The notes under the pieces were generated by a model. It ran no database searches, was not told where the DNA came from, and saw only the letters and a list, made by a program, of their open reading frames with translations. From Acidobacteriota bacterium (GTDB lineage Bacteria; Acidobacteriota; Polarisedimenticolia; J045), in contig JALUUK010000408.1 in assembly GCA_027021395.1 (NCBI GenBank), forward strand, positions 1 through 41,769: DNA of 41,769 bases, in the 5' to 3' direction. The position numbers and the translations under genes are program-made. This document shows positions 4,177 through 36,622 of this stretch, piece by piece. Each line of letters begins with the position of its first letter. The stretch's first letter is position 1.

Positions 4177-4187
4177 GACCGAGCTTG

Positions 4188-5111: not shown

Positions 5112-5252
5112 GCCCCCTCCGGATCAGCTTGATGTCCCGGTTCTGAATCCGAAGGCACCCGGCGGCTTGCGCAGCCGAAGGAAGAAAGATTGCGGTCGCT
5201 GAGTCGCCGGTCATTTGCAACGCCGCGTGGGCTAGGGTATGCTCGGGTCGTC

Positions 5253-5651
5253 ATGGCCAAGCTACCGATTCTCATCAGCCTGTTCGGACTCGGGATTTGT
5301 CTCGCCGTCGGCGGAGAGGCGCCACCCCCGCAGCCGCAACTGGTCCTACCGGGTCGCGTCGTCCGGGTCGTTGACGGCGACACGCTCGACGTAGAAGTGA
5401 CCCTTCGCGTGCGCGTGCGACTCCTGGATTGCTGGGCGCCGGAGGTGCGGACCGAGCAGGGCAAGAAGGCGGCTCAGCGAATGCGCGAGCTGGTGAAGGA
5501 TGGCAAGTGCCGGCTCGTGGTGCCGCTCCCGGCCGACGGCGAGCTCAGACGCTGCTTCACCTTCGGCCGAGTGCTTGGCCGAGTCTATTGCGGCGGTCAA
5601 GATGTCGGCCGGCAGTTGGTGCGGGAGGGACTCGCCAGCTCCCACAAGTGA
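5253..5651 (+). CDS. Secreted thermonuclease (SNase family)
   Basis: Signal-like N-terminus; VVRVVDGDTLDV, VRLLDCWAPE, FGRVLG, LVREGLA. Confidence 0.88.
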   Translation: MAKLPILISLFGLGICLAVGGEAPPPQPQLVLPGRVVRVVDGDTLDVEVTLRVRVRLLDCWAPEVRTEQGKKAAQRMRELVKDGKCRLVVPLPADGELRRCFTFGRVLGRVYCGGQDVGRQLVREGLASSHK

Positions 5652-5758: not shown

Positions 5759-7303
5759 CTACCAGTCGTAGACCGCTCGGAGGAAACCCGAGTGGAGCAG
5801 CCAATTGTTGAGGTGAGTCACGGCGATTTTCGACGTCGGCTCCGGTCCGTAGTCTTCCGCTGCCAGCCAGTAGCTCAGAATTTGGTTGCCGCCGAGCAGC
5901 CAGGCTTCGGTGCGGTAATCCTCCGGATAGCCGTTGGCGAGCAATGGATGGCCCGGCTGGAGGACTTCGCCGACTGGATAGGGGTACGGATCCGGAAAAG
6001 GTGTGCCCGGCTTCGCATACTCCCGCGACCAGAAATCCAGCGACAATCCCAATCCGCTCAGCAGTTCGGTCCACCAGCGATTCGTCATCGGCGGCGGGAC
6101 TTGCGGCAAATTGGCGTGGCCGCCGGCGGTCAATAACGAGAGTGACAAGTGATTGACCGGCGGCATCAGCAGGAGGCGCTTATTGCCGAGGCTTAGCCAG
6201 CGTTTCAACTCAGCCAACTGATCGGCAAAAGCCGCCGGTGACAATTCACCGATCAAGATCACCAGCTTAGCTTGATCCGGCAGTCTCGTGGCGGAGCGGG
6301 GCGATCCGTCGGACGCGTAGCCGACGCACGTCGCCGCGTCGAATCCGAAGGTGCCCCAGACATAGCCCCGTGGATCGGCCACTGTCGATGCACCGCGAAA
6401 CCCAAACCGGTAGAACCATTGTTCGGAAGCGCTGAAGCCAGCCCGGGTGTCCTCGAAGCAGCCAGCAGGATTCCACAGCACGACCCGGATCGCACCGCAA
6501 TCGGACGTATCGTACGCGGCGCCGTAGGGATCGTCGATCGTCGGATCATCCGCATTGAGGTCGGGGCGATACAGGGCGAATGGGGCGAACGATGCGCCGG
6601 CATTCGTTAAGCCGTCGTGGCCGGCGGGGCGGTGCCGAAGGTAGGGGTACCAGGATCCGTTTCCGGCACAATCGAGGCACCCGAATTGCAAGACGATTGA
6701 TCTCACCTCGACGAGGTAGTACCCGCCCCAGCTCGCGTTCAAGACCGGCAGGAGAAGCGAGAGCGGCTGGCCGAAATGCATGTTGGCCGGCTCTGGGAAG
6801 ACGCCGAAAGGATCGATGTAGGCCCATGTGTACCAAGGGCGAGGCTGTGCTCCGAAGACCGCACCGCCAGCCGTGCACCACCCCCCGACGATGCATCGCA
6901 AATTTGCTCGGTCGACTCGTCCGATTGCCACGGGGATCACTTGCCGGCCGGTCGGGGTCAGCGCGTCGACGAGAAGTCGCCAGACAGCGCCGTTCTGCCG
7001 GATCCAAGTGATTTCGTAAGGGCTGAGCCGGCCACTGAGGAATCCGGACTGACGCATGGGTGACAGATCGGCTGCCTTCCAGTACGGGTAATCGCTGAAA
7101 TAGTCCCAATAGATTGTCGCTCCATTACGGTCGAACCCGTCGCTCGACCAGTCAGTCAGCGTCGGCTGGGGCAGGATCGGGAACGCGATTTCCGTTGAGA
7201 GCGGGCAGGGAATCGGATCGTCCCCGGTCGTGATGAGCGTATCGCCCTCGGGATGAACGTAGCCGGTCTCTCGGCCAGTGCTGAGCCATCGCAACTCGGT
7301 CAT
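5759..7303 (-). CDS. Large hypothetical protein, last gene of the late operon (possible tail tip/receptor-binding)
   Basis: 514-aa aromatic-rich ORF coupled to 7300..9195; function inferred from position only. Confidence 0.6.
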   Translation of the reverse strand: MTELRWLSTGRETGYVHPEGDTLITTGDDPIPCPLSTEIAFPILPQPTLTDWSSDGFDRNGATIYWDYFSDYPYWKAADLSPMRQSGFLSGRLSPYEITWIRQNGAVWRLLVDALTPTGRQVIPVAIGRVDRANLRCIVGGWCTAGGAVFGAQPRPWYTWAYIDPFGVFPEPANMHFGQPLSLLLPVLNASWGGYYLVEVRSIVLQFGCLDCAGNGSWYPYLRHRPAGHDGLTNAGASFAPFALYRPDLNADDPTIDDPYGAAYDTSDCGAIRVVLWNPAGCFEDTRAGFSASEQWFYRFGFRGASTVADPRGYVWGTFGFDAATCVGYASDGSPRSATRLPDQAKLVILIGELSPAAFADQLAELKRWLSLGNKRLLLMPPVNHLSLSLLTAGGHANLPQVPPPMTNRWWTELLSGLGLSLDFWSREYAKPGTPFPDPYPYPVGEVLQPGHPLLANGYPEDYRTEAWLLGGNQILSYWLAAEDYGPEPTSKIAVTHLNNWLLHSGFLRAVYDW

Positions 7304-9195
7304 GAGTCGATCACTTCCACAGGAGCCAACTCCAGTCGGGTGACCTGGTCGCGGGGGTCATATCGCAGTCCTGTGATCTGAAGGTATTTGGCGGGTTCGA
7401 TACCGGGGACGTTCCGATTCAAATCGATGTTTCGGCCGTCGATGCGGTCGATGAGGTCACCGATCGCGTAGGAAAGCGACATTCCCGCCACGGCCGCTTC
7501 CACCTGCTGCACGGCCGATTCGTGTCGCTGTTTGAGCGTCAGCAGGTACTGTTCGAGCGCCGCCGAGTCGTACCGTTCGTCCGCGTCGGCGCTTTGGGCC
7601 AGGGCGCTGGCAAAATCACCGCTGGTGACGCGAGCGCGATCGAAGAAGCGGTCCGACAGATCAAGGAACAGAGTCAGATCACGGCGGTTCGGTGAGGCAT
7701 CCGCGAGCACCAGCGCGCCGAGCCGGCTGTCACCTTGGACCGTGCCCGTGATCCGGACGCGTGCCTGATCGCCAGCCGCGATCAGTTCCGGAGGAGGGGT
7801 GTTGCCGTCGAAATAGATACCGATGCGGTCTTTCAGCAAACGGATCGTCCAGTTGTTGCCCGCCGGCTGCCAGTCGGGGTTGCCGTACTCGTCCTCAGCC
7901 ACGGCGTAATCCACGAAGGGCTTGCGCCGCCGGCCGTGATCGTCCAGAGTCAGGCAGTCCAGCAGCGGGCGACGGCGGGCGATCCAAACGTCGAAGACCG
8001 ACGAGAGGTCGGTCGGACCGTCGATGGGAGCGGTGTAAGTCCGCAGGCCGGTGTAGCTGCCGTCTTCGTTCGCCACCCAGAGGCGCCACGCGTCTTGATG
8101 CTGCTCGTAGAGCGAGTCCTTCGCCGATTGATCCAGATCGGCGGCGCTGAGAGCGTCGTCGGCCTCGGGCCATCCGCGGAAAAGTTCTATCGTGACCTCA
8201 CGTTCCTGCCACTGGCCCTGGCCGACAATCTTGTTGGCCAGGCTGAGGATGTCGACGCGCAGGTCGGTCTGCGGGGCGTTCGATTCGCCCAGCTCGAAGG
8301 ATTCGCCCGGTCTCTGTAGATGGAGCTGTTTGGTTCGAGTCGCCTTGCCCAGGCGGAACAAGACGATCTTCTTATCGTGATGGTCCAGATACCAATGGTA
8401 GCCGTGCGGCACCAGCAGCCGATCGAGCAGCTCGGGCAGATACAGTCCCCGGGGCAGGCGGACATTCTTCAGCGGCGGTGGCGGGTCATTCGGGTCGTCG
8501 AAGAGGCCAGCCGCGTCCACGTCCGGATTCTCGACGAAAGTCTCATCGGGGTTGCAGACCGCGCAGAGCGTCTGGATCGCTTCCTTCAGCGTCCATTCCT
8601 CGCTGGTGCAGCCTTGCAGGGTCTGCGCGGCCGCCGTCCGGACGGAGTTGGGGTCGATGAAGGCATAGTGATCCTCGCCGGGCACTTTCTGGTCGCACTT
8701 GTTGGAGTAGATCGTCCCTTCGATCTCTGGGTTGAAGATAAGGTCTGCCGGCCAATCTTCGATCATGCCCTGGTTCCAGACGGGAATCGTCTGGAGCGGC
8801 TCGCCGAAATGATAGGGCGCGGCCGTGGCGGTGACGACCATGTCGGCGTCGGCGTTGCGCGCCGCGAGTTCGACGTCTTCGTTGGTCAGTTCGCCCCAGA
8901 ACAGCCGTTGTCCCAAATCCCCACTTTCGTCGGCGATCCAGACTTCCACCTGGCGGTTCCAGCGATCGCCGATCTGCCAGTCGACGAACTGCTGGCCGAG
9001 TACCTCGTACGCCACGCGGAAACGGGCGCGGTCCAGACTCTCCCCCCCGGCCGTCTTTTCGAGGTCGATCGGGATCATCCAGTCGACCTCATCGGTGGCG
9101 CTGGGCGCATTTCCCTGGTCGTCCCCCAAGAGGACGACCAGCCGAGCCATCGGCTCGGCGCCGGAGGAATTGCGATTGTTCGGCGTGGCAGTCAT
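7300..9195 (-). CDS. Putative tail hub/baseplate-like protein
   Basis: 631-aa acidic ORF in the tail operon; C-terminal YAIGDLI...ITGLRYD...TRLEL pattern typical of hub proteins. Confidence 0.6.
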   Translation of the reverse strand: MTATPNNRNSSGAEPMARLVVLLGDDQGNAPSATDEVDWMIPIDLEKTAGGESLDRARFRVAYEVLGQQFVDWQIGDRWNRQVEVWIADESGDLGQRLFWGELTNEDVELAARNADADMVVTATAAPYHFGEPLQTIPVWNQGMIEDWPADLIFNPEIEGTIYSNKCDQKVPGEDHYAFIDPNSVRTAAAQTLQGCTSEEWTLKEAIQTLCAVCNPDETFVENPDVDAAGLFDDPNDPPPPLKNVRLPRGLYLPELLDRLLVPHGYHWYLDHHDKKIVLFRLGKATRTKQLHLQRPGESFELGESNAPQTDLRVDILSLANKIVGQGQWQEREVTIELFRGWPEADDALSAADLDQSAKDSLYEQHQDAWRLWVANEDGSYTGLRTYTAPIDGPTDLSSVFDVWIARRRPLLDCLTLDDHGRRRKPFVDYAVAEDEYGNPDWQPAGNNWTIRLLKDRIGIYFDGNTPPPELIAAGDQARVRITGTVQGDSRLGALVLADASPNRRDLTLFLDLSDRFFDRARVTSGDFASALAQSADADERYDSAALEQYLLTLKQRHESAVQQVEAAVAGMSLSYAIGDLIDRIDGRNIDLNRNVPGIEPAKYLQITGLRYDPRDQVTRLELAPVEVIDS

Positions 9196-9287
9196 GGCGG
9201 TCTCGCTGGCGAGCCGGATGTGTCAACCTCCGGGTGGATCGGGTCCGCCGAGCCTTCGCACCCGCCGGCCGGTGCCGTCGGTTCGCC

Positions 9288-9337
9288 GGGTGGGCGATGC
9301 CCACCCTACGGCGGCTGGTGGGCGGTGCCCACCCTAC
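9288..9337 (-). repeat. Two tandem GTAG-type REP-like palindromes (GTAGGGTGGGCACCGCCCACC)
   Basis: Copies at 9288-9309 and 9317-9337; the second contains the stop codon of 9334..9771. Confidence 0.85.
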
Positions 9338-9771
9338 TGCGGCGGCTGCAAGCGGAGTTCCATCCAGGTGTCATGCCAGTCGGGCTGAGTCGATTGAGGC
9401 GGCTGCTGGGACTCGGGCGCTGCGGTCTGGTCGCTGGGCCGCAGCGCGCTGAGCAGGAGCGGCACTCCGGCACCCAGACCCGCTCCGCCGGCGAGCAACG
9501 CCGCGCCGAGCGCAGCCGTCGCGAGCCGGCTGATCGGCCGCGGAGTGGAAGGGGGCGTCTGGAGGTGGAACTCGTTGCCCACCCAGACGCCCGCCACCGC
9601 CGATTCCTCCGGGTCGGTTTCCGGGCTCGGCCGGCCGAGTGTGCCATCTTGGAGCTTACGGACCAGGCGGCGGACCAGAGCTCGCTCCCGGTTGGTCGCC
9701 TCCAGTTGGCTCGCCTCGTGAGCCAGCCGAGTCAGCATCCATTGGTGCTTCAGCTTCTCGCGCCAGTCCAT
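9334..9771 (-). CDS. Hypothetical membrane protein
   Basis: GAGGAG RBS; hydrophobic LATAALGAALLAGGAGLGAGVPLLL. Confidence 0.65.
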   Translation of the reverse strand: MDWREKLKHQWMLTRLAHEASQLEATNRERALVRRLVRKLQDGTLGRPSPETDPEESAVAGVWVGNEFHLQTPPSTPRPISRLATAALGAALLAGGAGLGAGVPLLLSALRPSDQTAAPESQQPPQSTQPDWHDTWMELRLQPPQ

Positions 9772-9907
9772 CGAGCTCGCTCCTCGCCTGCTCGGCCCGC
9801 CGCTTGATCCACTCACGGATTCGCCGCTCGATCAGCGCCCGGTCCAGCGAGACGGCGTCTCGGAGGCCGTCATTCAGAGCTTCCACGACGTTCACACGCG
9901 GCATCAC
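9656..9907 (-). CDS. Small helical hypothetical protein
   Basis: Start adjacent to the upstream stop; overlaps the next gene by about 115 nt. Confidence 0.45.
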   Translation of the reverse strand: MMPRVNVVEALNDGLRDAVSLDRALIERRIREWIKRRAEQARSELDGLAREAEAPMDADSAGSRGEPTGGDQPGASSGPPPGP

Positions 9908-10122
9908 TTAGTGCTTCCAGCGGGGGCCGGCCCGCCTGGCGTTTCTTTGGCTGCCACTTCGCGGGCGCCGAGGGATTCGGCCAGGCTGACCATGTCCTTG
10001 CCTTCGAGGTAGTTGTAGTCCAGGACTTTGGCCACCGTGACGAAGTTCTGCTGAGCGATGTTGCCGATCTGAAGCAGTTGATTCGCGGCGTGTTCCGCAA
10101 AACGTTCGCTGACATCGGCCAT
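9904..10122 (-). CDS. Small hypothetical protein
   Basis: AAAGGAG RBS; MADVSERFAEHAANQLLQIG... Confidence 0.7.
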   Translation of the reverse strand: MADVSERFAEHAANQLLQIGNIAQQNFVTVAKVLDYNYLEGKDMVSLAESLGAREVAAKETPGGPAPAGSTK

Positions 10123-10199
10123 GTCAGGTTCTCCTTTCTGTTGTTGACTGTCGGGCATGGGTAACGGAATGGTTTCCGGCATCGAAGTAGCCCTCCTGT

Positions 10200-11357
10200 C
10201 TATCGGCGCTGCGACCGGCTGATTGACGCCGGCCGCCTACCGTTCGCCGTAGGCTCCCGAGCACGTTCGGGCGGCCATTGACTGCGAGGAATCAAGTAGA
10301 AGTTCTGCGTCTCTCCCAGACGGACCTGGCTTTCCTGGAGGAGCTGTCCGTTCGGTCCATACAGCCGGAACCGAATCGGAGCAAGACGCGGTGCAATCTG
10401 CTTGGACAGTTCACCCGGGTCCGTCCGGCGTTTCAATTCGCTCATCAACCGCTGTTCGACGGAAGCCAGCGCTTGTTGCAGGGTCGCCGGATCGAAGTCC
10501 TTTCCGTCTTTCCCCGGCGGTCCCGGCGGCCCGGGAGGCCCGCGTTCACCGCGCGGACCAGGAACAGCAGCGATCTGTTTGAGCTTCTGGATCTGGTTTT
10601 GCAGCGTCTCAATTTCAGTCTGCAGGCGTTTGAGATCCTCGGCGACCTCTTTCGGCACCAAAGGCTCGCGTTCGGGGATTGGTGAAAGTTGTTGCTGTTG
10701 GTGCTGTCCACCACCCCCGTCACAGCCGCAATCACCGCGCCGGCGGCGGGCGAGCAGGCTCAGCAGACCGCTCGTTTTGGTGGCGGCGCCCCAGTTACCT
10801 TGTCCGGTGTAGAGCGCGACGCGGTTTTGCGTACGCGCGATGACGCCGACCAGCTTGCCATCGTAAAAGACACCGCCGCCGGATTCGCCGGCGATCGGTG
10901 CGGTGCGGCCCGTCAATTCCAGCCAGCGACCGTCCCGGGACTTCACTCGCGCACGATACCGCAGGATGCGATCGACGCCAGCGGCCGAGGGAACGCCGTA
11001 GACGAGGACTTCGGCACCGACCGGCGGCGGTTGCTCCGCCAGCGGGACAAAGGGCAAGACCGCCTTTGTGTCGAGACAGATCAGCGCTGCGTCGATCTCG
11101 TCATCTCGCGCACAGACCACCCGGCCGGCGAAACGCCGGCCGTCGTGCAAGATGACGACCACTCGTTGACCAGTCTCATAGCAATGCCCGGCCGTCAGCA
11201 CCTGGCGAGGCCCGACGAGTGTCCCGGAACAGCCCGATTCAATACGCACGCTGGCGCGGTCGTATTGCACCAGGCGCTCCGTCGCCAACTGGCCGGCGAC
11301 GGCCAACCCCGCCGCACACACAGCAAAGACGATGGTCGATCGCAGTAGGGTTTTCAT
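10200..11357 (-). CDS. Secreted trypsin-like serine protease with coiled coil and short collagen repeat
   Basis: Signal peptide; VLTAGHC, DAALI and GESGG catalytic triad motifs; GPRGERGPPGPPGPPGKDGKD. Confidence 0.88.
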   Translation of the reverse strand: MKTLLRSTIVFAVCAAGLAVAGQLATERLVQYDRASVRIESGCSGTLVGPRQVLTAGHCYETGQRVVVILHDGRRFAGRVVCARDDEIDAALICLDTKAVLPFVPLAEQPPPVGAEVLVYGVPSAAGVDRILRYRARVKSRDGRWLELTGRTAPIAGESGGGVFYDGKLVGVIARTQNRVALYTGQGNWGAATKTSGLLSLLARRRRGDCGCDGGGGQHQQQQLSPIPEREPLVPKEVAEDLKRLQTEIETLQNQIQKLKQIAAVPGPRGERGPPGPPGPPGKDGKDFDPATLQQALASVEQRLMSELKRRTDPGELSKQIAPRLAPIRFRLYGPNGQLLQESQVRLGETQNFYLIPRSQWPPERAREPTANGRRPASISRSQRR

Positions 11358-11359
11358 GG

Positions 11360-12097
11360 TCACACCGTTTGAACTTGGACGCTCGACGGAGCCGGTGGGC
11401 CCGTGGCGTCTGCCTGGACGGCCAAGCCGGTCAAGACGTCGGCCGTCACGGATTCATCGGAGTTCGCTGCGACGATCTTGTAGGTGTAAGGGGCGGCATC
11501 CGAAAGAGCCGGTGTGTCAATTTGGATGATCCGAGGAACCTGCTGGGCGTCGTCCCAGCTCACGACAGCATCGGTCGGAGAGGTCGGGCCGGCGGTAGCG
11601 ACCGCACGGAATCGGGTCGCCGCGATGCCGTCGCTGGCTGGCTGCCAACGGAACCGGATTCGGACCACGCCGCCCGATCGAGGTTCGATCGACAGCAACG
11701 TGGCGCTGCCCCGGATTTCCGTCTGCTCGTTCAAATTGGCATCGTAAGTCACCAGCAAGGTCCGGTAGTTATCCGTTTCGCACTCGACGTGATCAGCGAA
11801 TCGTCGTACGTCAAAGGCTACGGTCTGACCCGACCAGGCGGAAGAGGAATTCAGCACGGCCTGGTTTCCCGGATCGGCGACGCTGGTCACGCGAGCGGTC
11901 TTGGTGATGCTGCCGGCGCCAATCGCATGCACGCCCGCCCGCCCCTTGATGCGGCCCCGGCGCGTGCCGCGCGCATAGAGGCCGAGCACGCGCAGCCGCC
12001 GGTATTGCACCGTCGTTCCGAGAGTCGCATACACCGAGGTGCCGCTGCCGGCGAACGGATGGTGGTTGTAAGCGTCTTGGGAAGTGAGGATGCGCAT
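11360..12097 (-). CDS. Putative virion protein with fibronectin type III-like C-terminus
   Basis: Beta-rich; YTYKIVAAN and PPAP FnIII-like motifs. Confidence 0.55.
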   Translation of the reverse strand: MRILTSQDAYNHHPFAGSGTSVYATLGTTVQYRRLRVLGLYARGTRRGRIKGRAGVHAIGAGSITKTARVTSVADPGNQAVLNSSSAWSGQTVAFDVRRFADHVECETDNYRTLLVTYDANLNEQTEIRGSATLLSIEPRSGGVVRIRFRWQPASDGIAATRFRAVATAGPTSPTDAVVSWDDAQQVPRIIQIDTPALSDAAPYTYKIVAANSDESVTADVLTGLAVQADATGPPAPSSVQVQTV

Positions 12098-12113
12098 TGC
12101 GTCGGCTCTCCCA

Positions 12114-12239
12114 TCTCCTGGCCCGATCACGATCGCGACCGGAGGTCTCCCGTGGGTTTTCTGGTCTGGAGACCTTCGGTCCGTCGGGTGGGACGGTCCG
12201 GAGACCGCCCCACAACAGGGTGGGCGGTGCCCACCCTAC
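12114..12239. repeat. Composite palindromic element: inverted GGAGACC...CACAAC units plus GTAG REP
   Basis: Near-identical to 18631-18822, 19349-19505 and 21904-21979. Confidence 0.9.
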
Positions 12240-12907
12240 CCGATGGTCACGAAACGCCACTCGGAGGTGAACGTGACGCCGTTGAGAGTCACGGAGGCCT
12301 TGGCCTGGTACTGCCGGTCGTCGGTGAAGTTCGGCGTCGATTGCTCCGCCTCGAATACGTCGTCGTGAAGGTCCGCCGCCGTGAAGGTCTTCGTGAAAAG
12401 GTTCACCCCCGACTGATGCTCGCGGACGACGACCTGCGCCGTGCAGTTGCTGTCGACGGCGTCGACGTCGACCTTCCGGCCATCGTGTTCCAGCCAGACG
12501 GCAATTTGCGCGGCCGACCCCGACGTGCTCTTGACGTTCATTTCACATTTCACTTCGACGGGCAGAAGACCTCGGCGTCCCAGTCGCACGGTCAACGGCA
12601 CCGGTTCCTTCACAGCGTTGTCGTTGGGGCTGGGTGTCCCGTTGTCGAAGATTTTGACGATACAGTCCCGGGCCACGGCCGTATTGTTGATCGCCGACAG
12701 GTCCAGGTCCCACAGATATTGGCTGCGACCTTGGCCGGCCGCGCCGGTCTGCTCGGCATCCGCGAACTTGTGCGGCGTGGTGGCCTGCGAGAACGATTTG
12801 AACGTATTATCCGCGAAGTCGAAGACGTCGCCGTTGGCGGCGTCATACACGCGTAGATAGAGGTTCGCGCTGGACGCGTATTCGACGCTCAGACGCTGCG
12901 TTGCCAT
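12236..12907 (-). CDS. Putative virion structural protein
   Basis: GGAG RBS, beta-rich 223-aa ORF in the late operon; stop codon lies within the REP. Confidence 0.7.
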   Translation of the reverse strand: MATQRLSVEYASSANLYLRVYDAANGDVFDFADNTFKSFSQATTPHKFADAEQTGAAGQGRSQYLWDLDLSAINNTAVARDCIVKIFDNGTPSPNDNAVKEPVPLTVRLGRRGLLPVEVKCEMNVKSTSGSAAQIAVWLEHDGRKVDVDAVDSNCTAQVVVREHQSGVNLFTKTFTAADLHDDVFEAEQSTPNFTDDRQYQAKASVTLNGVTFTSEWRFVTIG

Positions 12908-12949
12908 TTTTTCTGCTCCGTTTGGTGGATTTGCCGGTGGGCGGTCACC

Positions 12950-14647
12950 CTACGCAGCTTTGGCTGACTCGACCAAATACCCTTCCGCGCCCGGGCGCCG
13001 GTCCGAGCGGAACAACGCGACGGCCGCACTCAACTGCTCGTAGCTGATGCGCAGCCGCCCCCAGGGCCAGGCGTGCCAGGCCGAAACGCACAGGTCCCAG
13101 AGCTCCTGCAGCGTCTTGCCGCGACTGACCACCTGCGGGCCTGGTCCCCCCTCGCCGCGTCGGCGATAGCTCTTTTCGACCTCAGCCAAATCGCGAGTGA
13201 TCCAAAGAAGGCAGGGCTGGTAAGGCTTCAAGACCGGAATCCAGCGGTCGATCGTGTGGACGAACCGAGGGTCTTTGATTGCCCAGGGCGCTTTCAAGTG
13301 ACTCAGGAGCTCCAAGACCTCCGCTTCGGGAAACGGATCACGCGGTGCGTGGATCAGCCGGTCATTGACCTGACGGATCGCCGGCAATTCGGCGTAGTGG
13401 TCGGCAGGACCAAGGTCCCAGCCGAGGCGGCCCAGCATGGCCGCCAGGACAGAGGTCCCGGAATGTCCGATGCCGAGGACGACGATGTTCGGCGGCGAAC
13501 CGACAGGGCAATCCTGGGTGTTCGCCTGGCGGTCGATGCCCATTCTACCCGCTGGCTTACGCCGGCGGTTCGCTTGGCGGGCGGTACGGGTCCCGGCCGG
13601 CCACCATTTCTCGTCGTGCAACTGGTGGTGGGGCGGACCGTCCAGGTTCCACTTCGAAAAGAAGTACGAGGCATATTCTTGCCGGCGGGCGCGGAAGGCG
13701 ATGTACTCCGGTCGCTTGACGGGACGGTGGTCGACCACCACGTCCGGGCAATACACCACGCGCAGCCCGTGCCGATTCAGTTGCAAAAAGTGGTCCAGGT
13801 GTTCCCAGCTCACTTTGAAGGTTTCGTCCCAGGCTGCTTTGAGCAGCGCGTCACGACGGGCGGCGAAGAAATTCAGCCCCAGATCGGTCGGTACGTATCG
13901 GGCACCCCCGGGAGTTTCGCGCGGCGGCTCCTCAATCGGCGCCACGCGCAGGCGCCAGCGGCCGTCGCGGCCCGGTGCCCAGCGGAAGCGACCGGCGAAG
14001 TTCAGCACACGGCCGGGTCCTTGACGCATCAAGCCCGTGACGATTGAGACCTCGGGAAGTGCCTCCAGCACCTCCAGGAAACGCTCCAGCCGCGTTTCGC
14101 TGGTGAACACGAAATCGTCATCACAGTTCACGAGGATAGGGGCGGTCGCGTGTCGGACCAGATAGTTTCGCCCGGCCGCCAGCCCGACATCGAACGGGAG
14201 CTGGAACCAGGTGACGTTCGGCTGCCGGCGAACCCACTGGCCTTCCTCCGGGAGCTCTTCGCCAGGGCGGAGGGAATCGTCGGCGACCAGCACGCGTGCG
14301 GCTGGGTAGTGACGCTGGATCGATTCGACGCATCGCTTCAAACAATCGAATCGTCGAAAGCTCTTGATCAGAATCTGGAACACGTCGTAATCGATCTCGC
14401 TTTCGCCCGCGAGCGGCATCGGATCATCAAGCGTCAGCCACTCGAAGGAGTCCGCCCGTCCGGAGCGTCGCGCTAGTTCTCGGGCCAGTCGACACATCTC
14501 GGATCGCCGCGTTGAGCCGCTGCGCGCCAGCGGCTTGGCCCGCGCTCGCCCGTAGATGCCCACTCCGGGCGCCGCAACAATAGCGTCGCAAACCGCCGCG
14601 AGTTCCTCGATGCGAGAATCCGTTCTGTCGGCAAGCAAGATGCGCAT
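12950..14647 (-). CDS. GT-A glycosyltransferase (B4GALNT/GT12-like or GT2) fused to a sulfotransferase domain
   Basis: IKSFRRFDCL, VLVADDS, GLAAGRN, CDDDFVFT, NFFAAR; C-terminal IVVLGIGHSGTS (PAPS-binding loop) and WAIKDPR. Confidence 0.85.
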   Translation of the reverse strand: MRILLADRTDSRIEELAAVCDAIVAAPGVGIYGRARAKPLARSGSTRRSEMCRLARELARRSGRADSFEWLTLDDPMPLAGESEIDYDVFQILIKSFRRFDCLKRCVESIQRHYPAARVLVADDSLRPGEELPEEGQWVRRQPNVTWFQLPFDVGLAAGRNYLVRHATAPILVNCDDDFVFTSETRLERFLEVLEALPEVSIVTGLMRQGPGRVLNFAGRFRWAPGRDGRWRLRVAPIEEPPRETPGGARYVPTDLGLNFFAARRDALLKAAWDETFKVSWEHLDHFLQLNRHGLRVVYCPDVVVDHRPVKRPEYIAFRARRQEYASYFFSKWNLDGPPHHQLHDEKWWPAGTRTARQANRRRKPAGRMGIDRQANTQDCPVGSPPNIVVLGIGHSGTSVLAAMLGRLGWDLGPADHYAELPAIRQVNDRLIHAPRDPFPEAEVLELLSHLKAPWAIKDPRFVHTIDRWIPVLKPYQPCLLWITRDLAEVEKSYRRRGEGGPGPQVVSRGKTLQELWDLCVSAWHAWPWGRLRISYEQLSAAVALFRSDRRPGAEGYLVESAKAA

Positions 14648-14649
14648 CG

Positions 14650-14979
14650 CTACTCCGCCCAACTCTGTTCCAATTGTTTCATCCGCTCTTTCAAGTCCGA
14701 GAGGTGCAGATCGATCCGCTCAAGAATGGCCCGCTGATGCTCAGCGATCTCGACCAATTTGCGGATCGTGTCTTCCAGACTGCGCCGGGAATACCACAGT
14801 TTCACGCCGTTCTGGTCATTGACGTTGTGCCACTCCCACAGGTCCCGGGTCTGTTGCGCGATCGTTTCGAGCTTGGATCGGCGCGCGGCATCCCGGCGAT
14901 CACGCAGCTCGTCGAGCACGATCTTGATGACGATCACGGCGAAGGTACCGCCCACACCAATTTGAGAGATCAGGTCCAT
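14650..14979 (-). CDS. Holin-like membrane protein (one TM helix plus coiled coil)
   Basis: QIGVGGTFAVIVIKIVL followed by charged helices; located after the tail fibre genes. Confidence 0.5.
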   Translation of the reverse strand: MDLISQIGVGGTFAVIVIKIVLDELRDRRDAARRSKLETIAQQTRDLWEWHNVNDQNGVKLWYSRRSLEDTIRKLVEIAEHQRAILERIDLHLSDLKERMKQLEQSWAE

Positions 14980-14980
14980 C

Positions 14981-15706
14981 TTAAATTCCCAGAAACATCA
15001 AAAACGGCGCCCCTTTCGCTGGGACTTCGCCGAACGGATAGGACAGCGCGTTTGCGCTGTTGTAGAGTTCACTTACCTCAGATTGGCTTAACGCTCGCCT
15101 CCAAAACCCCATCTCATCGATCCGGCCCGGGAAATAGTCGACGGAGTACCCGCCGGAGATTCGGCACCCGACGCAATATTTTCCCGAGGACGTGAAACCG
15201 CTAGTTGTTCCACTCCAGGAGTTCGCGGTCCGAGTCGCGTTCGAGTAGAACTCGATTTCGACGCCGTTCTTGATCACGAATACCAGATGCCGCCACGCGC
15301 CCGAGGTCCACGCATTGGCCGATCGCACGATGAGCGGCTGAGTCATGCTCGCCGAGTCCTTCAGCAGGCCCTCGTAGTAGTAGTAGCCCGACGGGTCTTT
15401 CACCATGCGGACGGCAAACTCGATGTTCGTGTCTCCCTTATAGACCAGATAGACATCATCAGCCGGCGTCGTCGTATAAGCCCACAGACTGATCGTCAGG
15501 TCCGACGTTCCAAGGCGAAAGTCGGGATGGTCATCGACATAGAGCCACGTACTTGTCCCCACGCGCACAGCGTATCCGAGTATCCCTGGGTCAGGCTGTG
15601 GGGATCCCACCGCATTGAGCGTGTGGGGGCCGTGGGAGTCGGCACGATTGCCGGTCGTGTTTTCGTCGAACTTCCAGTACGAGACCAGGCTGTCTAGCAA
15701 GCTCAT
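14981..15706 (-). CDS. LamG/concanavalin-like jelly-roll protein
   Basis: LVSYWKFDE, TISLW, WRHLVFV, FPGRIDEMGFWRRALSQSEVSELYN. Confidence 0.88.
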   Translation of the reverse strand: MSLLDSLVSYWKFDENTTGNRADSHGPHTLNAVGSPQPDPGILGYAVRVGTSTWLYVDDHPDFRLGTSDLTISLWAYTTTPADDVYLVYKGDTNIEFAVRMVKDPSGYYYYEGLLKDSASMTQPLIVRSANAWTSGAWRHLVFVIKNGVEIEFYSNATRTANSWSGTTSGFTSSGKYCVGCRISGGYSVDYFPGRIDEMGFWRRALSQSEVSELYNSANALSYPFGEVPAKGAPFLMFLGI

Positions 15707-17277
15707 AGGTTTTGTCCCAGCACGAATCCGTCGTAACTGTCTGCCCCGGTGCAGAGGAACCCGAACACATCTGTCTTGTTGGCCCCGGTACTCAGGTTGG
15801 GCACACTTCCACCCGGCCAGCGAATGCCGCTCCACCAGGTCACGGTTCGACCGCCGGTCGAGTCTTGCGTCACCCGGATCAAGAAACGCTGGCCGACAGA
15901 GACGTTGGTGACCGCGAGCGTCCGGTCGCCGCCCAGGGTGACCTGGTGGACGTCGGCGACGTCCATATCGAACGTGATTGTTGCCGCGTCCGCATCGGTT
16001 TGAATCGCGCCGGCTGTCGCCTTCGTATGGATCTTGTCCGTCCCGTCGTCGATCGTGACGGCGCTGCTCTGCAGCACCTTGCCGGTCGTGCCGTCGAACT
16101 TGGCGATGCCGTTGTCGGTGGAACTTGCCGGCCCGGAAACGTCACCGCTTCCTCCGCCGCCGCTCCAGCCGGCTTCTGCCTGTGTCTGGTTGATCCACGC
16201 GCCCGACGCGGCGTCCCAATGGAGACCTTCGTTGTCAGTCACTGCCGTAATCGTGACGTCCGGCACGTCGTCGAGCTGCGTGATCGACAATAACCGCCAG
16301 ACCGCGGCGCCGGCGGTCGCGTCGACGCACATGTAGACTTTGTCCGCAGCGGTGTCGATCCAGAGAGACCCGACAGAATAGCCGGCGTTGCTGTCGTCGC
16401 TGGCCGTCGGGGCGGTTGTGCGCGCGAACTCGCTCCGGACCTGTTGGGCTGCGCCGGCTTCGATCCGGATCAGCCCCGACCAGGCGGAAGCGTCCGAGCC
16501 CAGGCCGCCCCGAGCCAGGGGAAGGACGCCGCTGGTGAGGTCACTGGTATCGTGTGTGTGCGCCGCGGCGGCGAGCTGGGCTTCGGCGGCGGTTTGATTC
16601 GTCCAGACTCCCGAGGCGGCGTCCCAAGCGAGCACCTCGTTTTCCGTGACGTTGCTGATCTGGACGTCGGTGAGATTACCCAGAGTGCCGCTGCCGCCCC
16701 CGCCGCTGAGCTGGAAGAAAGACAGCGCATCCGTCCCGACAACATCCGAGCCGGCGTTGTTCGTGCAGACGAAGAGCTGGTCGGCATACGTCGCCCCCTC
16801 CTTGACGAGCACCAGGTGCCCGGCCACGGCGTCACCGGCCGCCATGTCGTCCGTGCGGATCCACGTGTTGGCACTGTCCGTGCCGATCTCGTACAGCCCA
16901 TTCTCCACGCCGTTGGTCTGGGCGCGGACCAGCACGCGATCACCGGCCTGGAGTGATACGCCGTCGATCGTCTGGACGCCAGCCAGCGTGACGTTGGCCG
17001 TGGTGGCCGCGCGAGCACCGGAGAGCCGGATCGCTTCCCCTCGGACGTATTCGGCACCGTGGAGGCCGTCGAGCAGGTCCGCGTTGAGGTTGGCGACCCG
17101 TGTGTTGCTGTCGACGACCAACGGCGCGACGCCTGGCGGCGCGTCGGCGTAGAAAGTTTCGGCGCGAATCTGGAACGGGCCAGCGTCCCAATCCGCAGTG
17201 AGCTGCACGGTTCCGTCGCGCAGCAGAGCGTTATCGGCTCCCCCTAACGACGGAACGACCAGGATTTCCTCCGCCAT
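15703..17277 (-). CDS. Tail fibre protein
   Basis: TIDGVSLQAGDRVLVRAQTNGVENGLY module; two WDAASGxWxNQT repeats; C-terminal ITQD-GGRTVTW...WPGG domain. Confidence 0.82.
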   Translation of the reverse strand: MAEEILVVPSLGGADNALLRDGTVQLTADWDAGPFQIRAETFYADAPPGVAPLVVDSNTRVANLNADLLDGLHGAEYVRGEAIRLSGARAATTANVTLAGVQTIDGVSLQAGDRVLVRAQTNGVENGLYEIGTDSANTWIRTDDMAAGDAVAGHLVLVKEGATYADQLFVCTNNAGSDVVGTDALSFFQLSGGGGSGTLGNLTDVQISNVTENEVLAWDAASGVWTNQTAAEAQLAAAAHTHDTSDLTSGVLPLARGGLGSDASAWSGLIRIEAGAAQQVRSEFARTTAPTASDDSNAGYSVGSLWIDTAADKVYMCVDATAGAAVWRLLSITQLDDVPDVTITAVTDNEGLHWDAASGAWINQTQAEAGWSGGGGSGDVSGPASSTDNGIAKFDGTTGKVLQSSAVTIDDGTDKIHTKATAGAIQTDADAATITFDMDVADVHQVTLGGDRTLAVTNVSVGQRFLIRVTQDSTGGRTVTWWSGIRWPGGSVPNLSTGANKTDVFGFLCTGADSYDGFVLGQNL

Positions 17278-17288
17278 CCGTTACCCTC

Positions 17289-17921
17289 CTATGCGGGATT
17301 GGTCCAAGTGAGCGTCGTCTGATTGCCCGCCACCGAGGCTGTCAGCCGCTTGCCTGCGCCGTCAATCCGCACGTCCTTCGGCTGGGTCAGCAGATCGACG
17401 GTCGCGGTGGCCGGCGAGCCCAGATTGCCGCTTGGCAGCTTGTCGTCCTGAGCGACCACGTCGACGTTGTATTGCCCGGAGGGGCCCATCGGCGGCGAAC
17501 GGAGGACGTAGGTGTCGTCGCCGAACACCAGCCGGCGATCCAGCACGTTGTTCGGGTCGACCGGCTGCCCGGGCGCGCCGCCGGCACGGAGCATCACGAG
17601 CTTGCCATCCGCCGGCCATCCGCTGACCGTGGCCCGGACTTCGATCCGGTTATACGGTCGCGGTGGCAATTGATTGCCGAAGTCGATCGCCCGGCTGGCC
17701 GGGTCGACGGCGAGGATCATGACGACTTGTGGCCAAGGACTCGGCTTCAGCGCCCCGACCAGTACGCGCCAACCCGGGGATTCGGCGACTGCGGTGAGCA
17801 CGCGCCCGATGTAGAGCTGGTGATACCAGCCGCTGTAGGTCGAAGTGAAATGGACGGCGATCTGTTGACCGCCGATCCAAGCCACGCGCGTGATCGTCAA
17901 TCCGCCGAGGTAGCCCGTCAC
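17289..17921 (-). CDS. Putative tail protein
   Basis: GTG start with GAGGAGG RBS; beta-rich; position in the tail operon. Confidence 0.6.
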   Translation of the reverse strand: MTGYLGGLTITRVAWIGGQQIAVHFTSTYSGWYHQLYIGRVLTAVAESPGWRVLVGALKPSPWPQVVMILAVDPASRAIDFGNQLPPRPYNRIEVRATVSGWPADGKLVMLRAGGAPGQPVDPNNVLDRRLVFGDDTYVLRSPPMGPSGQYNVDVVAQDDKLPSGNLGSPATATVDLLTQPKDVRIDGAGKRLTASVAGNQTTLTWTNPA

Positions 17922-17923
17922 CC

Positions 17924-18313
17924 TCAGTCCTCCTCGTCCCACCAGTCTGCGAAGCCGTCCGCATGCATCCGGACGTTCAAATCGATGAGGTCGCCTCGCT
18001 GATTGACGCCATAGAGGGTCGCCAACCAGCGGCCGTATTTGCCCTGCCGATCCTTTTCCGTGGTCACGTAGATCACCGGGCGGCCGCAAGCGTCGCGGGT
18101 CACAGCGTATTGCTCGATCAACTCTTCAAGATGCTCAGCAGCGGCCGTGCCGCGCGACTTTTGCTCGCCGCGTTTCTCCGGCGCGTCGATCCATTGCAGC
18201 CGCAGACGCAACCGCCGGAAGGAGTGAAACCCCTGATCCACGAGCACGTCCACCGTGTCGCCGTCAACGACTCGGAGCACCGAGGCGCGATAGTTGTAGA
18301 GCCGGACGGTCAC
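17924..18313 (-). CDS. Thermonuclease (SNase family), no signal peptide
   Basis: YRASVLRVVDGDTVDV, LRLQWIDAPE, GKYGRWLA. Confidence 0.88.
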   Translation of the reverse strand: MTVRLYNYRASVLRVVDGDTVDVLVDQGFHSFRRLRLRLQWIDAPEKRGEQKSRGTAAAEHLEELIEQYAVTRDACGRPVIYVTTEKDRQGKYGRWLATLYGVNQRGDLIDLNVRMHADGFADWWDEED

Positions 18314-18612
18314 TGCTGATCCTCCGAAACAAAATGCACGTGGACGCTGACCCGAGCGTCTTCGCGTCCATCGTTTGTGACGGTCCAGCCTCGCTGCGGG
18401 ACCGAACTCAGCCTCTGTGCGTTCAGCTCCAATGGTCGCGTGGCCGTCACTTGCCAATGCTTTTCACCGGCCTCCAGCGTCACTTCGGCGGTCGTCAGCA
18501 CAAGCAAATACTGCAGAGCGGACACCTCCTCGCCGAAATCCAGCGTTGAGCTTTCGCCTTTCGGCAGCTTGATGTCCACAACTTTGCTGCGAATCGGGAT
18601 GTATTCGGTCAT
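18310..18612 (-). CDS. Hypothetical protein
   Basis: AAGGA RBS; GTGA coupling to the nuclease gene. Confidence 0.6.
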   Translation of the reverse strand: MTEYIPIRSKVVDIKLPKGESSTLDFGEEVSALQYLLVLTTAEVTLEAGEKHWQVTATRPLELNAQRLSSVPQRGWTVTNDGREDARVSVHVHFVSEDQQ

Positions 18613-18630
18613 GGTTCTGTTCCTTCCCAG

Positions 18631-18822
18631 GTTGTGGTCGGGTCTCCCGACCCGATCACCATTGCGACCGGAGGTCTCCCTCCCGTTGTGATCAGGTCTC
18701 CTGACCCGATCACTACTGCGACCGCAGGTCTCCAGTGGGTTTTCTGGATGGGAGACCTTCGGTCCGTCGGGTGGGACGGTCTGGAGACCGCCCCACAACA
18801 GGGTGGGCAGTGCCCACCCTAC
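18631..18822. repeat. Composite palindromic element (three GGAGACC...CACAAC units plus GTAG REP)
   Basis: Two tandem units, one inverted unit, then GGGTGGGCAGTGCCCACCCTAC. Confidence 0.9.
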
Positions 18823-18832
18823 TGGAGGCGGA

Positions 18833-19231
18833 TCAGCCGGCTCGCTGCCGCCAGAGCAGGCGCAGCCGGCACCACCACCCGTGGACTCCACTGCCGTCGC
18901 GCTGTGGCTCCTGGAGTACCTCGAAGCCCAGAAACGTGGTCCGTGGATAATTGGCCGCGACACCCGCGACGGTCTGGGTCAACGTGCCGGTCAATTGGCC
19001 GGCTTGATTCGTCAGTGTGTTCAGGGCGGTACGCAGAGCATCCAAGTCGGCGTATCCGGAGAGCAGCAGCTCGGCCGTCAGGTCCCGCCCATGGATCGCG
19101 CCGACCAAATGATGTTCGCCTCGCACGGCGGGGTAAGTATGCACGACCAGGTCGACCTCCGCCGGCCGCGCCGGCCGGACCGGGCTGTCCAGTCCGTTTT
19201 CGTAGGTGTATCCGTCGTGCGATAGGGTCAT
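18833..19231 (-). CDS. Putative distal tail protein
   Basis: First gene after the tape measure; 132 aa. Confidence 0.55.
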   Translation of the reverse strand: MTLSHDGYTYENGLDSPVRPARPAEVDLVVHTYPAVRGEHHLVGAIHGRDLTAELLLSGYADLDALRTALNTLTNQAGQLTGTLTQTVAGVAANYPRTTFLGFEVLQEPQRDGSGVHGWWCRLRLLWRQRAG

Positions 19232-19256: not shown

Positions 19257-19505
19257 CCGCCGGCGTGAGCCGGCGGCTGCGGCTTCTCATTGGTGGGCGG
19301 TGCCCACCCTACCCGCTACCCGCCGGCTCACGCCGGCGGTTCGCCCCGGTTGTGGTCGGGTCTCCCGACCCGATCACCATTGCGACCGCAGGTCTCCAGT
19401 GGGTTGTCTGGTTGGGAGACCTTCGGTCCATCGGGTGGGACGGTCTGGAGACCGCCCCACAACTTCGGTCCCTGGGGTGGGCCGGTCCGGAGACCGGCCC
19501 ACAAC
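19257..19505. repeat. Intergenic mosaic of three palindrome families
   Basis: CCGCCGGCGTGAGCCGGCGG copies at 19257-19276 and 19316-19344 (inverted); GTAG REP at 19292-19312; GGAGACC units at 19349-19505. Confidence 0.9.
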
Positions 19506-21133: not shown

Positions 21134-21856
21134 TCAAGTACCGGGGGTGCTGGCTTCCCCCTTTTTTTCGAGCTCGTCCTCCACTTGTTGAATCTCGGGC
21201 TGCTGAATCGTCGCCAGAGCCACGAGCGGCGCCGTCTCACTGTTGAGCAGCCTGAGATGGCTGACGACTTCAGGCGTAAGCCGGTAGTTGAATCGCAGTG
21301 CTTGGACCAAGTAATCCCACCAATCTGCCCACGGCAGGTCGATTCGGCCTTCGCCCAGCACCAAGCGATACAACTCCTGGCTCTTCCGCCAGAAGGACCG
21401 GTAATCCTCTTGCAATTCTTCGCGGACCTGACCGGTTTCCGGGTCGATCCGGAAGTCCCGGGGCAGCATGGCGGCCGCCGCGACGACCCAGCGGTTGCCA
21501 TCCCCGAGCCGGACCCAATAGCCGGAATGCGCGACCTGCAGGCCCGGGAGGGCGGCGGGACGCTGCAAGTCGCGCGGTCCGGGCGGCGACTGGCGCCAAA
21601 CCCCGACCCAATATCGGCCTCGCTCACCCGTCCCCGGCTGGGGCGCAGCGGGAATCCATTCTTGTTCGTCGGGAACGAACCCAAACCTCGGCTGCTCACC
21701 TTTGGGCTGCCAAAACACCATCGCGCCGGGTCCCCCGGTCGGTCCCTCGGAACACTCCACCCACTGCGCACCCTCCACGTGGTCGGCGAGGCCGGCTTCG
21801 ACCAGTAGCTGCGGGTTTTGCCCCCGTTTGTCGGGCAGGAAGATTTGATAGTGCAT
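21134..21856 (-). CDS. Tail assembly chaperone (gpG-like) with -1 frameshift site
   Basis: Between tail tube and tape measure; in-frame A_AAA_AAG near the 3' end; AAGGAG RBS. Confidence 0.7.
   Translation of the reverse strand: MHYQIFLPDKRGQNPQLLVEAGLADHVEGAQWVECSEGPTGGPGAMVFWQPKGEQPRFGFVPDEQEWIPAAPQPGTGERGRYWVGVWRQSPPGPRDLQRPAALPGLQVAHSGYWVRLGDGNRWVVAAAAMLPRDFRIDPETGQVREELQEDYRSFWRKSQELYRLVLGEGRIDLPWADWWDYLVQALRFNYRLTPEVVSHLRLLNSETAPLVALATIQQPEIQQVEDELEKKGEASTPGT
21161..21167 (-). promoter_or_regulatory. Slippery heptamer A AAA AAG (programmed -1 frameshift)
   Basis: Reads GAA AAA AAG GGG; the -1 frame stays open to TGA at 21012-21014. Confidence 0.7.
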
Positions 21857-21871
21857 CGAGTCTCCTTTTTG

Positions 21872-21979
21872 CTGCCGGCTTACGCCGGCGGGGTCTCTGG
21901 TTGGGAGACCTTCGGGCCGTCGGGTGGGACGGTCCGGAGACCGCCCCACAACAGGCAGGGTGGGCGGTGCCCACCCTAC
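21872..21979. repeat. Composite palindromic element
   Basis: CTGCCGGCTTACGCCGGCGG, one GGAGACC unit (21904-21952) and a GTAG REP containing the tail-tube stop codon. Confidence 0.9.
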
Positions 21980-36376: not shown

Positions 36377-36622
36377 GAGGAAAAACTGGGCGCCGCGACG
36401 AGGCGGCGCCAGCGATTAAGGGATGCGGCAGGATGGCCAATCGGGACGGAGCGGGACAGATCGGGGTGGTCGGCCCCAGGGAGGTGAGGAGCGATGCGGG
36501 CCGGCGGCCCGGGCCTCTGAGCCGGAGGGTCGACGATGTATGCTGCATCCTTTCCGCCATTACACATCTCAGTCATTCTCCAATGGGGACAGCCGGAACA
36601 GTCGAGCACGGAGGGGCCGGTG

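Follow-up and report, generated by a model that had tools for sequence, protein, structure and literature searches.

A GT12-like glycosyltransferase fused to a sulfotransferase-like domain in the tail-fiber operon of a probable temperate phage

Temperate phages alter the surface glycans of their hosts by means of seroconversion genes such as GtrA, GtrB, and GtrV, which are often found at module edges and encode membrane proteins acting across the membrane. To our knowledge, phage-encoded glycosylation of the virion has been shown only in mycobacteriophages so far. In these phages (Che8 gp110, Corndog gp38, and Myrna), glycosyltransferases encoded by the phage modify its own capsid and tail proteins (PMC12363180, PMC11256854), and sulfation goes unmentioned in the sections of both papers used here. 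Among animal enzymes, human B4GALNT1 (GM2/GD2 synthase; PDB entries 9h6j, 9h6k, and 9h6l) belongs to CAZy family GT12, whose characterized members are four, all of them mammalian, according to the available part of PMC12430364. Here, we describe a gene located on a stretch of DNA of 41,769 nucleotides (contig JALUUK010000408.1, hereafter the window), which we interpret as a temperate phage that was binned together with an assembly from a planctomycete. The gene codes for a GT12-like glycosyltransferase domain followed by a sulfotransferase-like domain and lies within a run of tail-fiber genes. The explanation that we tentatively put ahead of the others, at a little short of an even chance, is a soluble fusion enzyme that most likely decorates virion proteins before assembly.

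The locus departs from each of these described systems. Mycobacteriophages showed no sequence similarity to the fusion protein in a tblastn search of 50,697 deposited phage genomes, and the glycosyltransferase genes of the F1-cluster phage Maravista are situated close to the 3' genome end (available sections of PMC11256854), in contrast to the tail-fiber operon found here. Compared with the Gtr seroconversion system, the fusion is a soluble two-domain protein encoded inside a late operon. With human B4GALNT1, it shares the inverting GT-A fold, 33% identity over ca. 250 residues, and an identical DDDFVFT..TRLER block. However, the human enzyme is a type II membrane protein of the Golgi that forms a disulfide-linked dimer and acts on gangliosides, while the phage protein has no anchor, is presumably cytoplasmic, and is fused to a sulfotransferase-like domain.

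The open frame on the minus strand (12950..14662) is a single one and, from the ATG at 14647, yields a 565-residue product (Table 1). The original prediction had described a B4GALNT-like glycosyltransferase fused to a sulfotransferase, and all the motifs that it quoted were present in the translation, namely, KSFRRFDCL (residues 95 to 103), VADDS (121 to 125), GRN (159 to 161), DDDFVFTSETRLERFLEVLE (176 to 195), NFFAAR (259 to 264), GHSGTS (394 to 399), and KDPR (458 to 461). The AlphaFold model of the whole protein had a mean predicted local distance difference test (pLDDT) value of 77.8, with both domains mostly above 90 and values of <50 at residues 1 to 51, 63 to 82, 352 to 383, and 548 to 565. 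The first 85 residues were unaligned or absent in relatives. A hydropathy scan of the fusion protein found no membrane segment (the maximum, 1.65, fell on the first strand of the C-terminal domain). The GC content at third codon positions was 0.76, inside the range of the neighboring genes (0.67 to 0.85), so that composition does not support a recent arrival of the gene.

The N-terminal half of the protein matched PF00535, a generic GT2 family, in Pfam (E value of 4.9e-13), but more specific relationships were obtained from other searches. Among all PDB sequences, phmmer found human B4GALNT1 (9h6j) with an E value of 2.7e-26 over query residues 90 to 330, and this was the only glycosyltransferase among the matches. 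A family profile of 11 sequences placed B4GALNT1 at 3.1e-41 (144.5 bits), with the next glycosyltransferase, heparosan synthase B, at 2.5e-6. Structural comparisons agreed: the B4GALNT1 entries came out at 1.8e-22 and 33% identity in Foldseek (GalNAc-T2 at 2e-11), and with the ESM Atlas's own model, the top structural cluster was chordate B4GALNT1 (TM of 0.83), followed by a planctomycete GT2 cluster (0.81). A scan of NCBIfam gave only glycosyltransferase matches, far below threshold, and in the viral structure library BFVD the closest match had an E value of 6e-14 and 15% identity. These results bear out the parallel with animal beta-1,4-N-acetylgalactosamine (GalNAc) transferases that the original prediction had drawn, as opposed to a generic GT2 assignment, and the domain groups with host enzymes only insofar as those host enzymes are themselves B4GALNT1-like fusions.

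Individual residues were mapped onto those named in the available sections of PMC12217166 by means of a HMMER alignment (chain number plus 34). The phage protein retains the GT12 equivalents K95 (K284 in B4GALNT1), R99 (R288), D176 and D178 (D356 and D358), N259 (N437), and H307 (H483), and its Y325 aligns with Y501. The DDD motif at residues 176 to 178 was invariant in 11 of 11 relatives.

Searches with the C-terminal domain among 1.84 billion proteins detected 389 cluster representatives at an E value of ≤0.001, 288 of them at ≤1e-10. In the list of 146 relatives, 44 were stand-alone proteins of ≤210 residues, while 60 of the 102 longer ones (counted from the output) carried PF00535 and others had GT32, GT25, or CHGN-type domains. 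The model of the domain built with the 44 stand-alone relatives was of high confidence (pLDDT of 91.8), and its first Foldseek match was the tyrosylprotein sulfotransferase TPST1 (E value of 1.3e-4), with adenylate kinase close (2e-4). In an exhaustive VIA-align search, the top matches were TPST2 (Z score of 12.2), TPST1 (12.2), and tick TPST (12.0), with 151 residues aligned at a root mean square deviation of 3.0 to 3.3 and a sequence identity of only 18 to 20%, followed by a Bacillus subtilis kinase-like protein and an olefin-synthase sulfotransferase domain (both 10.7).

Since the fold alone cannot separate sulfotransferases from P-loop kinases, we applied three further tests, a relaxed Pfam scan, profile-profile alignment with hhalign, and residue conservation. 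In the relaxed scan of 45 sequences, Sulfotransfer_3 appeared in 20, Sulfotransfer_1 in 4, and Stf0 in 3, and none of the 15 families listed was a kinase family. Against eight Sulfotransfer_3 domains taken from the genomes of the relatives, hhalign gave a probability of 96.8% (E value of 2.9e-10) over 85 columns that take in the K-D-P block, the R-x7-S block, and the final Y-E strand, while the control with eight adenylate kinases gave 0.5%. Across 160 domains, K458 and W469 were conserved in all, P460 in 159, and S493 in 155, and position 485 was R or K in every one. The sulfotransferase fold expected for the C terminus was thus recovered, both in the TPST top matches and in a core resembling Sulfotransfer_3.

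TPSTs have a K-D-P-F block ahead of an R-D-x6-S motif. The hallmarks of sulfotransferases given in the accessible part of PMC11625862 are a loop Lys or Arg, a helix Ser within an RXXXDXXXS consensus, and a His or Glu base, and the catalytic residues of TPST2 are Arg78, Glu99, and Lys158 (available part of PMC10951654). By their comparable spacing, we infer that H395, E420, and K458 correspond to these three, so that Glu99 and Lys158 of TPST2 would match an invariant Glu and Lys in the phage domain family. With TPST1, TPST2, and Sulfotransfer_3 (PF13469, which includes NodH), the domain shares the alpha/beta core, the x-S-G-T-[ST] loop, the K-D-P block, and the R-x7-S motif. It differs from them in its length (ca. 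165 residues versus 250 to 300), in the His that replaces Arg or Lys in the loop, in scoring under the Pfam threshold, and in that the family is nearly always fused to or beside glycosyltransferases. Given the loop His in place of Lys or Arg, we call the domain sulfotransferase-like and treat it as a separate family, not as a member of PF13469.

Relatives of either half also occurred with other partners. Three proteins from environmental contigs of 10 to 44 kb (P0168, P0169, and P0170; ca. 415 residues) combine a B4GALNT1-like domain, 35 to 42% identical to that of the window, with a GT29 sialyltransferase (PF00777, E values of 3e-16 to 2e-14), that is, two "animal-type" ganglioside enzymes within one chain. 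In a slime mold transcriptome (P0015), a B4GALNT1-like domain is paired with GT6. A sulfotransferase-like relative was located on the C terminus of a Mu-type portal protein (P0066; PF06074, E value of 7e-41), either a virion-attached form or a gene-calling artifact.

The minus strand of the window from ca. 31.8 kb to ca. 5.8 kb is a single co-directional gene run. It starts with the small terminase, large terminase, portal, maturation protease, and major head protein (at 24284-25249), continues with a tape-measure-like protein, an SNase-like nuclease, the tail-fiber-like protein, the LamG protein, a small hydrophobic protein, and the fusion gene, and ends with two unknown genes, a trypsin-plus-collagen protein, and two large acidic proteins. 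Only 2 nucleotides separate the ATG of the fusion gene from the TAG that ends the gene upstream, and the following gene begins 42 nucleotides after the fusion stop. The gene had been placed between the tail fiber/LamG gene and other structural genes; the upstream part of this location holds, whereas the downstream genes match no family and would be structural judging only by their shared direction and their conserved order in L050. This contig carries the closest relative, a fusion protein 56% identical, and it has the same order of the fiber (71%), LamG (39%), and fusion genes, followed by the counterparts of the two downstream genes (34 and 32%, respectively) and of the large acidic protein (34%, ca. 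610 residues). From the operon position only, we infer late expression. A scan of positions 9000 to 19000 for regulatory signals was uninformative (no promoter-like sites; 10 terminator-like sites versus 7.7 ± 3.0 expected), and a scan of the window found no tRNA genes.

Table 1. Features of the fusion gene and its surroundings in the window
Feature	Position	Strand	Evidence or remark
Fusion gene	12950..14647	-	565 codons plus TAG stop
N-terminal residues 1-85	14393..14647	-	Variable, low model confidence, no membrane segment
GT-A glycosyltransferase domain, residues 86-350, B4GALNT1-like	13598..14392	-	PF00535 and B4GALNT1 similarity
DDD, residues 176-178, DxD metal/UDP-binding motif	14114..14122	-	Aligns with D356-D358 of B4GALNT1
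Interdomain linker, residues 351-385, disordered	13493..13597	-	pLDDT < 50 for 352-383
Degenerate palindromic-repeat copy in linker, residues ~357-375, in frame	13523..13578	+	Repeat families D5/D6, inverted pair I1
Minimal sulfotransferase-like domain, residues 386-565	12953..13492	-	Model and profile comparison
GIGHSGTS, residues 392-399, 5'-phosphosulfate-binding-type loop	13451..13474	-	Weak Sulfotransfer_3 matches, profile positions 1-22
E420, candidate catalytic base	13388..13390	-	Invariant in 160/160 domains
KDPRF, residues 458-462; K458 candidate transition-state lysine	13262..13276	-	Aligns with K-x-P block of Sulfotransfer_3
RDLAEVEKS, residues 485-493, 3'-phosphate-binding-type R-x7-S	13169..13195	-	Aligns with R..p.dv..S block of Sulfotransfer_3
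Tail-fiber-like protein	15706..17277	-	PHROG tail-fiber and head-decoration families, best E 1.3e-22; upstream of fusion gene
LamG/concanavalin-like protein	14984..15835	-	PF13385, E 1.4e-17
109-residue protein, N-terminal hydrophobic segment	14653..14979	-	Stop abuts fusion-gene start
Downstream gene	12239..12907	-	No family match (Pfam, PHROG); same order in L050
Second downstream gene	11363..12130	-	No family match; same order in L050
Large acidic protein, further downstream	7303..9195	-	No family match; same order in L050
Serine integrase	4047-4985		E 6e-42
Tyrosine integrase	36536-37711		E 1.7e-16

The two integrases indicate that the phage is probably temperate. The ends of the contig repeat imperfectly (positions 1 to 300 versus 40891 to 41190 at 97% and 674 to 930 versus 41312 to 41568 at 84%, with an indel between), which likely fits a complete circular or terminally redundant genome of ca. 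40.9 kb whose assembly drew on a mixed population or two variants. The bin that holds the phage comprises 4.38 Mb in 818 contigs (93.8% complete, 6.9% contaminated). It contains a match to adenosine 5'-phosphosulfate (APS) kinase and two more copies of the fusion (ca. 47% identity), on contigs of 5.7 and 5.3 kb that are too short to provide context.

Several other features of the window were recorded. The linker of the window protein exceeds that of most relatives, and its in-frame repeat copy, which aligns with an intergenic copy at 19270-19355, seems to have lengthened this disordered segment. The palindromic repeat family (core GGTGGGC..GCCCACC, then CCGGC..GCCGG) occupies several late-gene gaps (9284-9339, 12114-12241, 18626-18824, 19304-19486, and 21850-21981), and a 54-nucleotide piece of it is present on another contig of the same bin. 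Within the late operon, the trypsin-like protease protein (10203-11363, minus strand; PF13365, E value of 2.6e-15) has a signal-peptide-like N terminus and a short collagen repeat. Two SNase-like paralogues in opposite orientations (17927-18457, minus strand, and 5190-5648, plus strand; phrog_452, E values of 1e-27 and 2.1e-16) share a 31-nucleotide stretch that is 90% complementary. A 180-residue open reading frame at 38368-38907 (plus strand) carries, at residues 99 to 172, a CRISPR-associated Csx3 domain (PF09620, E value of 9.1e-22). Csx3 is a ring nuclease for cyclic oligoadenylates, and the phage protein could act against type III CRISPR signaling.

In order to see how the fusion is distributed, we searched viral and cellular collections. 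In IMG/VR, 22 viral loci had a relative, comprising 13 with both domains in one protein, 6 with the glycosyltransferase only, 2 with the sulfotransferase-like domain only, and 1 with both domains as separate genes in reversed order. The collection of species genomes (one genome per species) contained 116 stretches with a relative, of which the best 80 were retained. Within these 80, 18 span both domains to at least residue 546; by record title, each of the 18 is from Planctomycetota, and two are from strains in culture (Thalassoglobus neptunius KOR42 and Roseiconus nitratireducens JC645). The same best 80 include one Chloroflexota locus matching residues 92 to 482 at 25% and glycosyltransferase-only relatives at 24 to 38% identity across many phyla. 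The tblastn search of deposited phage genomes returned 184 Salinibacter phage records only, none covering at least 80% of the query; the matches, in genes annotated as hypothetical, correspond to the glycosyltransferase half alone (ca. 36% identity).

The surroundings of the gene varied among loci. A tape-measure gene lies two to four genes upstream on the same strand in 6 of the 10 annotated two-domain viral loci (L004, L005, L006, L008, L009, and L011), but five of these six are interrelated and therefore not independent. As for the remaining viral loci, an endolysin gene follows the fusion gene in L002, a portal gene is found downstream in L016, L013 has no annotated neighbor, and in L001 the fusion gene points away from the head genes, with replication genes after it. 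In L009, the fusion gene also stands second to last ahead of the integrase module. Eight loci from species genomes were annotated for context. In three of them, all cellular, the fusion gene is immediately followed by a gene for a Ser/Thr kinase. L055 is part of a glycan cluster. L075 lies beside flagellar export genes on the opposite strand, L057 between a D5-type primase and a terminase, and L063 among primase-polymerase and Mu-transposase genes, while L059 follows a tail-tube gene and ends beside a helix-turn-helix regulator. With regard to the kinase-linked loci, the kinase start overlaps or adjoins the fusion gene in L054 and L062, and sulfatase genes are found nearby in L054 and L060.

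From these sequence comparisons, we consider it quite probable that both halves are active enzymes of the kinds described, although a number of results weigh against parts of this interpretation. On the glycosyltransferase side, the UDP-GalNAc-binding residues conserved only in GT12 are K284, N437, R457, Y501, and R505 (available sections of PMC12217166), and two of these five have no aligned equivalent, since R457 aligns to S280 and R505 to F329. An invariant Y315-x3-R319 in the relatives shows the same spacing as Y501-x3-R505 and may be the true equivalent after a 10-residue deletion, but the mismatch makes the donor sugar uncertain. On the other side, the C-terminal domain alone matches no Pfam family, a longer piece matches only Sulfotransfer_3 at an E value of 0.14, at the loop, and the Sulfotransfer_3 (PF13469) match of 13.7 bits (E value of 0.078) covers only profile positions 1 to 22, the gathering cutoff being 27. 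Neither the single domain nor a 45-sequence profile retrieved a solved sulfotransferase among PDB sequences. The match to TPST2 stops at chain residue 247, leaving without counterpart the last ca. 35 residues of a 282-residue solved chain, which help to bind 3'-phosphoadenosine 5'-phosphosulfate (PAPS) in that enzyme. P-loop kinases are near in fold score (Z of 10.6 to 10.7, adenylate kinase at 10.6), and His395 occupies the loop position of Lys or Arg (of 160 domains, H in 129, R in 15, and N in 5). A kinase or phosphotransferase of the P-loop type, or a nucleotide-binding or targeting module without catalytic activity, would account for the missing catalytic Lys or Arg, for a domain ca. 100 residues shorter than solved sulfotransferases and under every Pfam threshold, and for the nearness of adenylate-kinase-like folds (Z of 9.5 to 10.7, besides the Foldseek match), but we regard this alternative as very improbable. 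The Walker-A lysine is lacking, with GHSGTS where kinases have GK[ST], and neither the hhalign comparison nor the weak Pfam matches of the 45 relatives pointed to kinases; on the grounds of the hhalign control and the missing lysine, a kinase identity was rejected. The planctomycete protein L037 passes the Sulfotransfer_3 cutoff and yet has His in the loop (the same position as judged by eye), and the complete conservation of E420, K458, and W469 speaks for catalysis. The top three fold matches, ca. 1.5 Z units above the next rows and also at the top in Foldseek, together with the parallel of E420 and K458 to Glu99 and Lys158, would instead suit a protein tyrosine sulfotransferase (TPST or RaxST-like) acting on a virion or host protein, with the glycosyltransferase half working independently. 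This we consider very improbable, given the low identity to TPSTs and the persistent partnership of the domain with glycosyltransferases (including GT25, GT32, and CHGN-type domains), which points to a sugar acceptor. Furthermore, the accessible part of PMC11625862 groups TPSTs by fold and catalytic base with the sugar-sulfating N-sulfotransferases (NST) and 3-O-sulfotransferases (3-OST), so that likeness to TPST does not specify a tyrosine acceptor.

If both halves are active, the target would be the virion with somewhat better than even probability, a host molecule being the less probable choice. The same enzyme could serve lysogenic conversion or superinfection exclusion by acting on a host glycan precursor, glycolipid, or envelope protein at the inner membrane face, changing the surface so that related phages cannot adsorb or released virions avoid debris, an explanation that is unlikely overall but the strongest competitor. 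Several observations pull in this direction and away from the virion. The fusion occurs in planctomycete chromosomes (the 18 two-domain loci mentioned above), and tblastn raised its pairing with a Ser/Thr kinase to seven plainly cellular loci (L054, L060, L061, L062, L065, L073, and L110). The pair is a conserved two-gene unit in planctomycete chromosomes; Planctomycetota thus have their own version of the fusion, and the kinase downstream together with housekeeping neighbors implies that a host acceptor exists. The end of a late operon next to lysogeny or lysis genes is a classic place for conversion genes, and this is where the gene lies in L009, L002, and L059, with L009 and L059 near the boundary of the lysogeny module. 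Moreover, tblastn of 23 window proteins against 26 loci (22 viral contigs and 4 from the same assembly) detected no shared neighbor besides the fusion gene, so that no conserved partner or acceptor is visible among distant phage loci. The cellular clade, the two integrases of a probably temperate phage, and the module-edge position elsewhere keep a role at the host surface alive. Against such a role, the protein lacks both a membrane segment and Gtr-type partners (general Pfam and PHROG scans of the neighbors gave no match to Gtr families, with no search aimed at them), and the gene is embedded in the late operon, coupled, with at least seven co-directional genes after it, a position from which expression in the prophage is not expected. 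The phylogeny also separates the window protein from the cellular copies. In a maximum-likelihood tree of 25 full-length proteins (midpoint rooted for drawing only and giving no direction of transfer; nine truncated or near-duplicate rows, L003, L007, L010, L020, L026, L052, L066, L067, and L075, were omitted), the six kinase-linked copies formed one clade (97/95), while the window protein fell in a separate viral or phage-like group of nine rows (100/99) with L050, a second copy of the same bin, four viral contigs, and two contigs of metagenome-assembled genomes. The embedded and coupled position among fiber genes, kept in the related phage, and the mycobacteriophage precedent lead us to favor virion proteins moderately over the host envelope as the acceptor.

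Decoration of virion proteins by a soluble fusion would proceed as follows. The protein would work in the cytoplasm and have two active sites, with a disordered tether of ca. 35 residues between them. Its GT-A domain would represent a prokaryotic or viral counterpart of the animal GT12 beta-1,4-GalNAc transferases, in which D176 and D178 would bind the UDP-sugar and a divalent metal and the sugar would be transferred with inversion; the donor, judging by the relatives, would most likely be a UDP-N-acetylhexosamine (HexNAc), possibly UDP-GalNAc. The C-terminal domain would be a stripped-down sulfotransferase of the Glu-base class (TPST/NST/3-OST-like), binding host-made PAPS via the GIGHSGTS loop and R485/S493, with E420 as the putative base and K458 as the putative transition-state stabilizer. 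The APS-kinase match in the bin suggests that the host can supply PAPS. On the basis of this match and the lack of a membrane segment, we propose sequential action in the cytoplasm, where the GT-A half would add a beta-linked HexNAc and the tethered half would sulfate the added or a neighboring sugar, the product probably being a sulfated sugar. The gene would be co-transcribed and translationally coupled with the tail-fiber genes, and fiber or tail proteins would be decorated before assembly.

In its most specific form, that planctomycete phages use a single GT12-type/sulfotransferase fusion to cover their tail fibers or other proteins of the virion with an animal-like epitope of sulfated beta-HexNAc, this proposal is still a rather long shot. 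Literature searches, with ca. 1.7 million PubMed Central articles and most subscription journals outside their coverage, found no paper on a phage sulfotransferase or on sulfation by a phage enzyme. The C-terminal domain family, which comprises at least 389 clusters, also represents an annotation gap, as no Pfam family covered it above threshold in the relatives scanned. The presence of the fusion in two cultured planctomycetes makes the question directly testable, and a soluble, easily expressed prokaryotic or viral relative of GT12 would allow simple experiments on the evolution and mechanism of the family. If the proposal is true, it would give phages their first sulfated virion glycan and establish a first functional GT12 enzyme from beyond the animals. 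The cellular clade linked to a kinase would then mark a sulfo-glycosylation system in the cytoplasm of Planctomycetota that is as yet undescribed, and the phages would have taken their enzyme from it, or the reverse.

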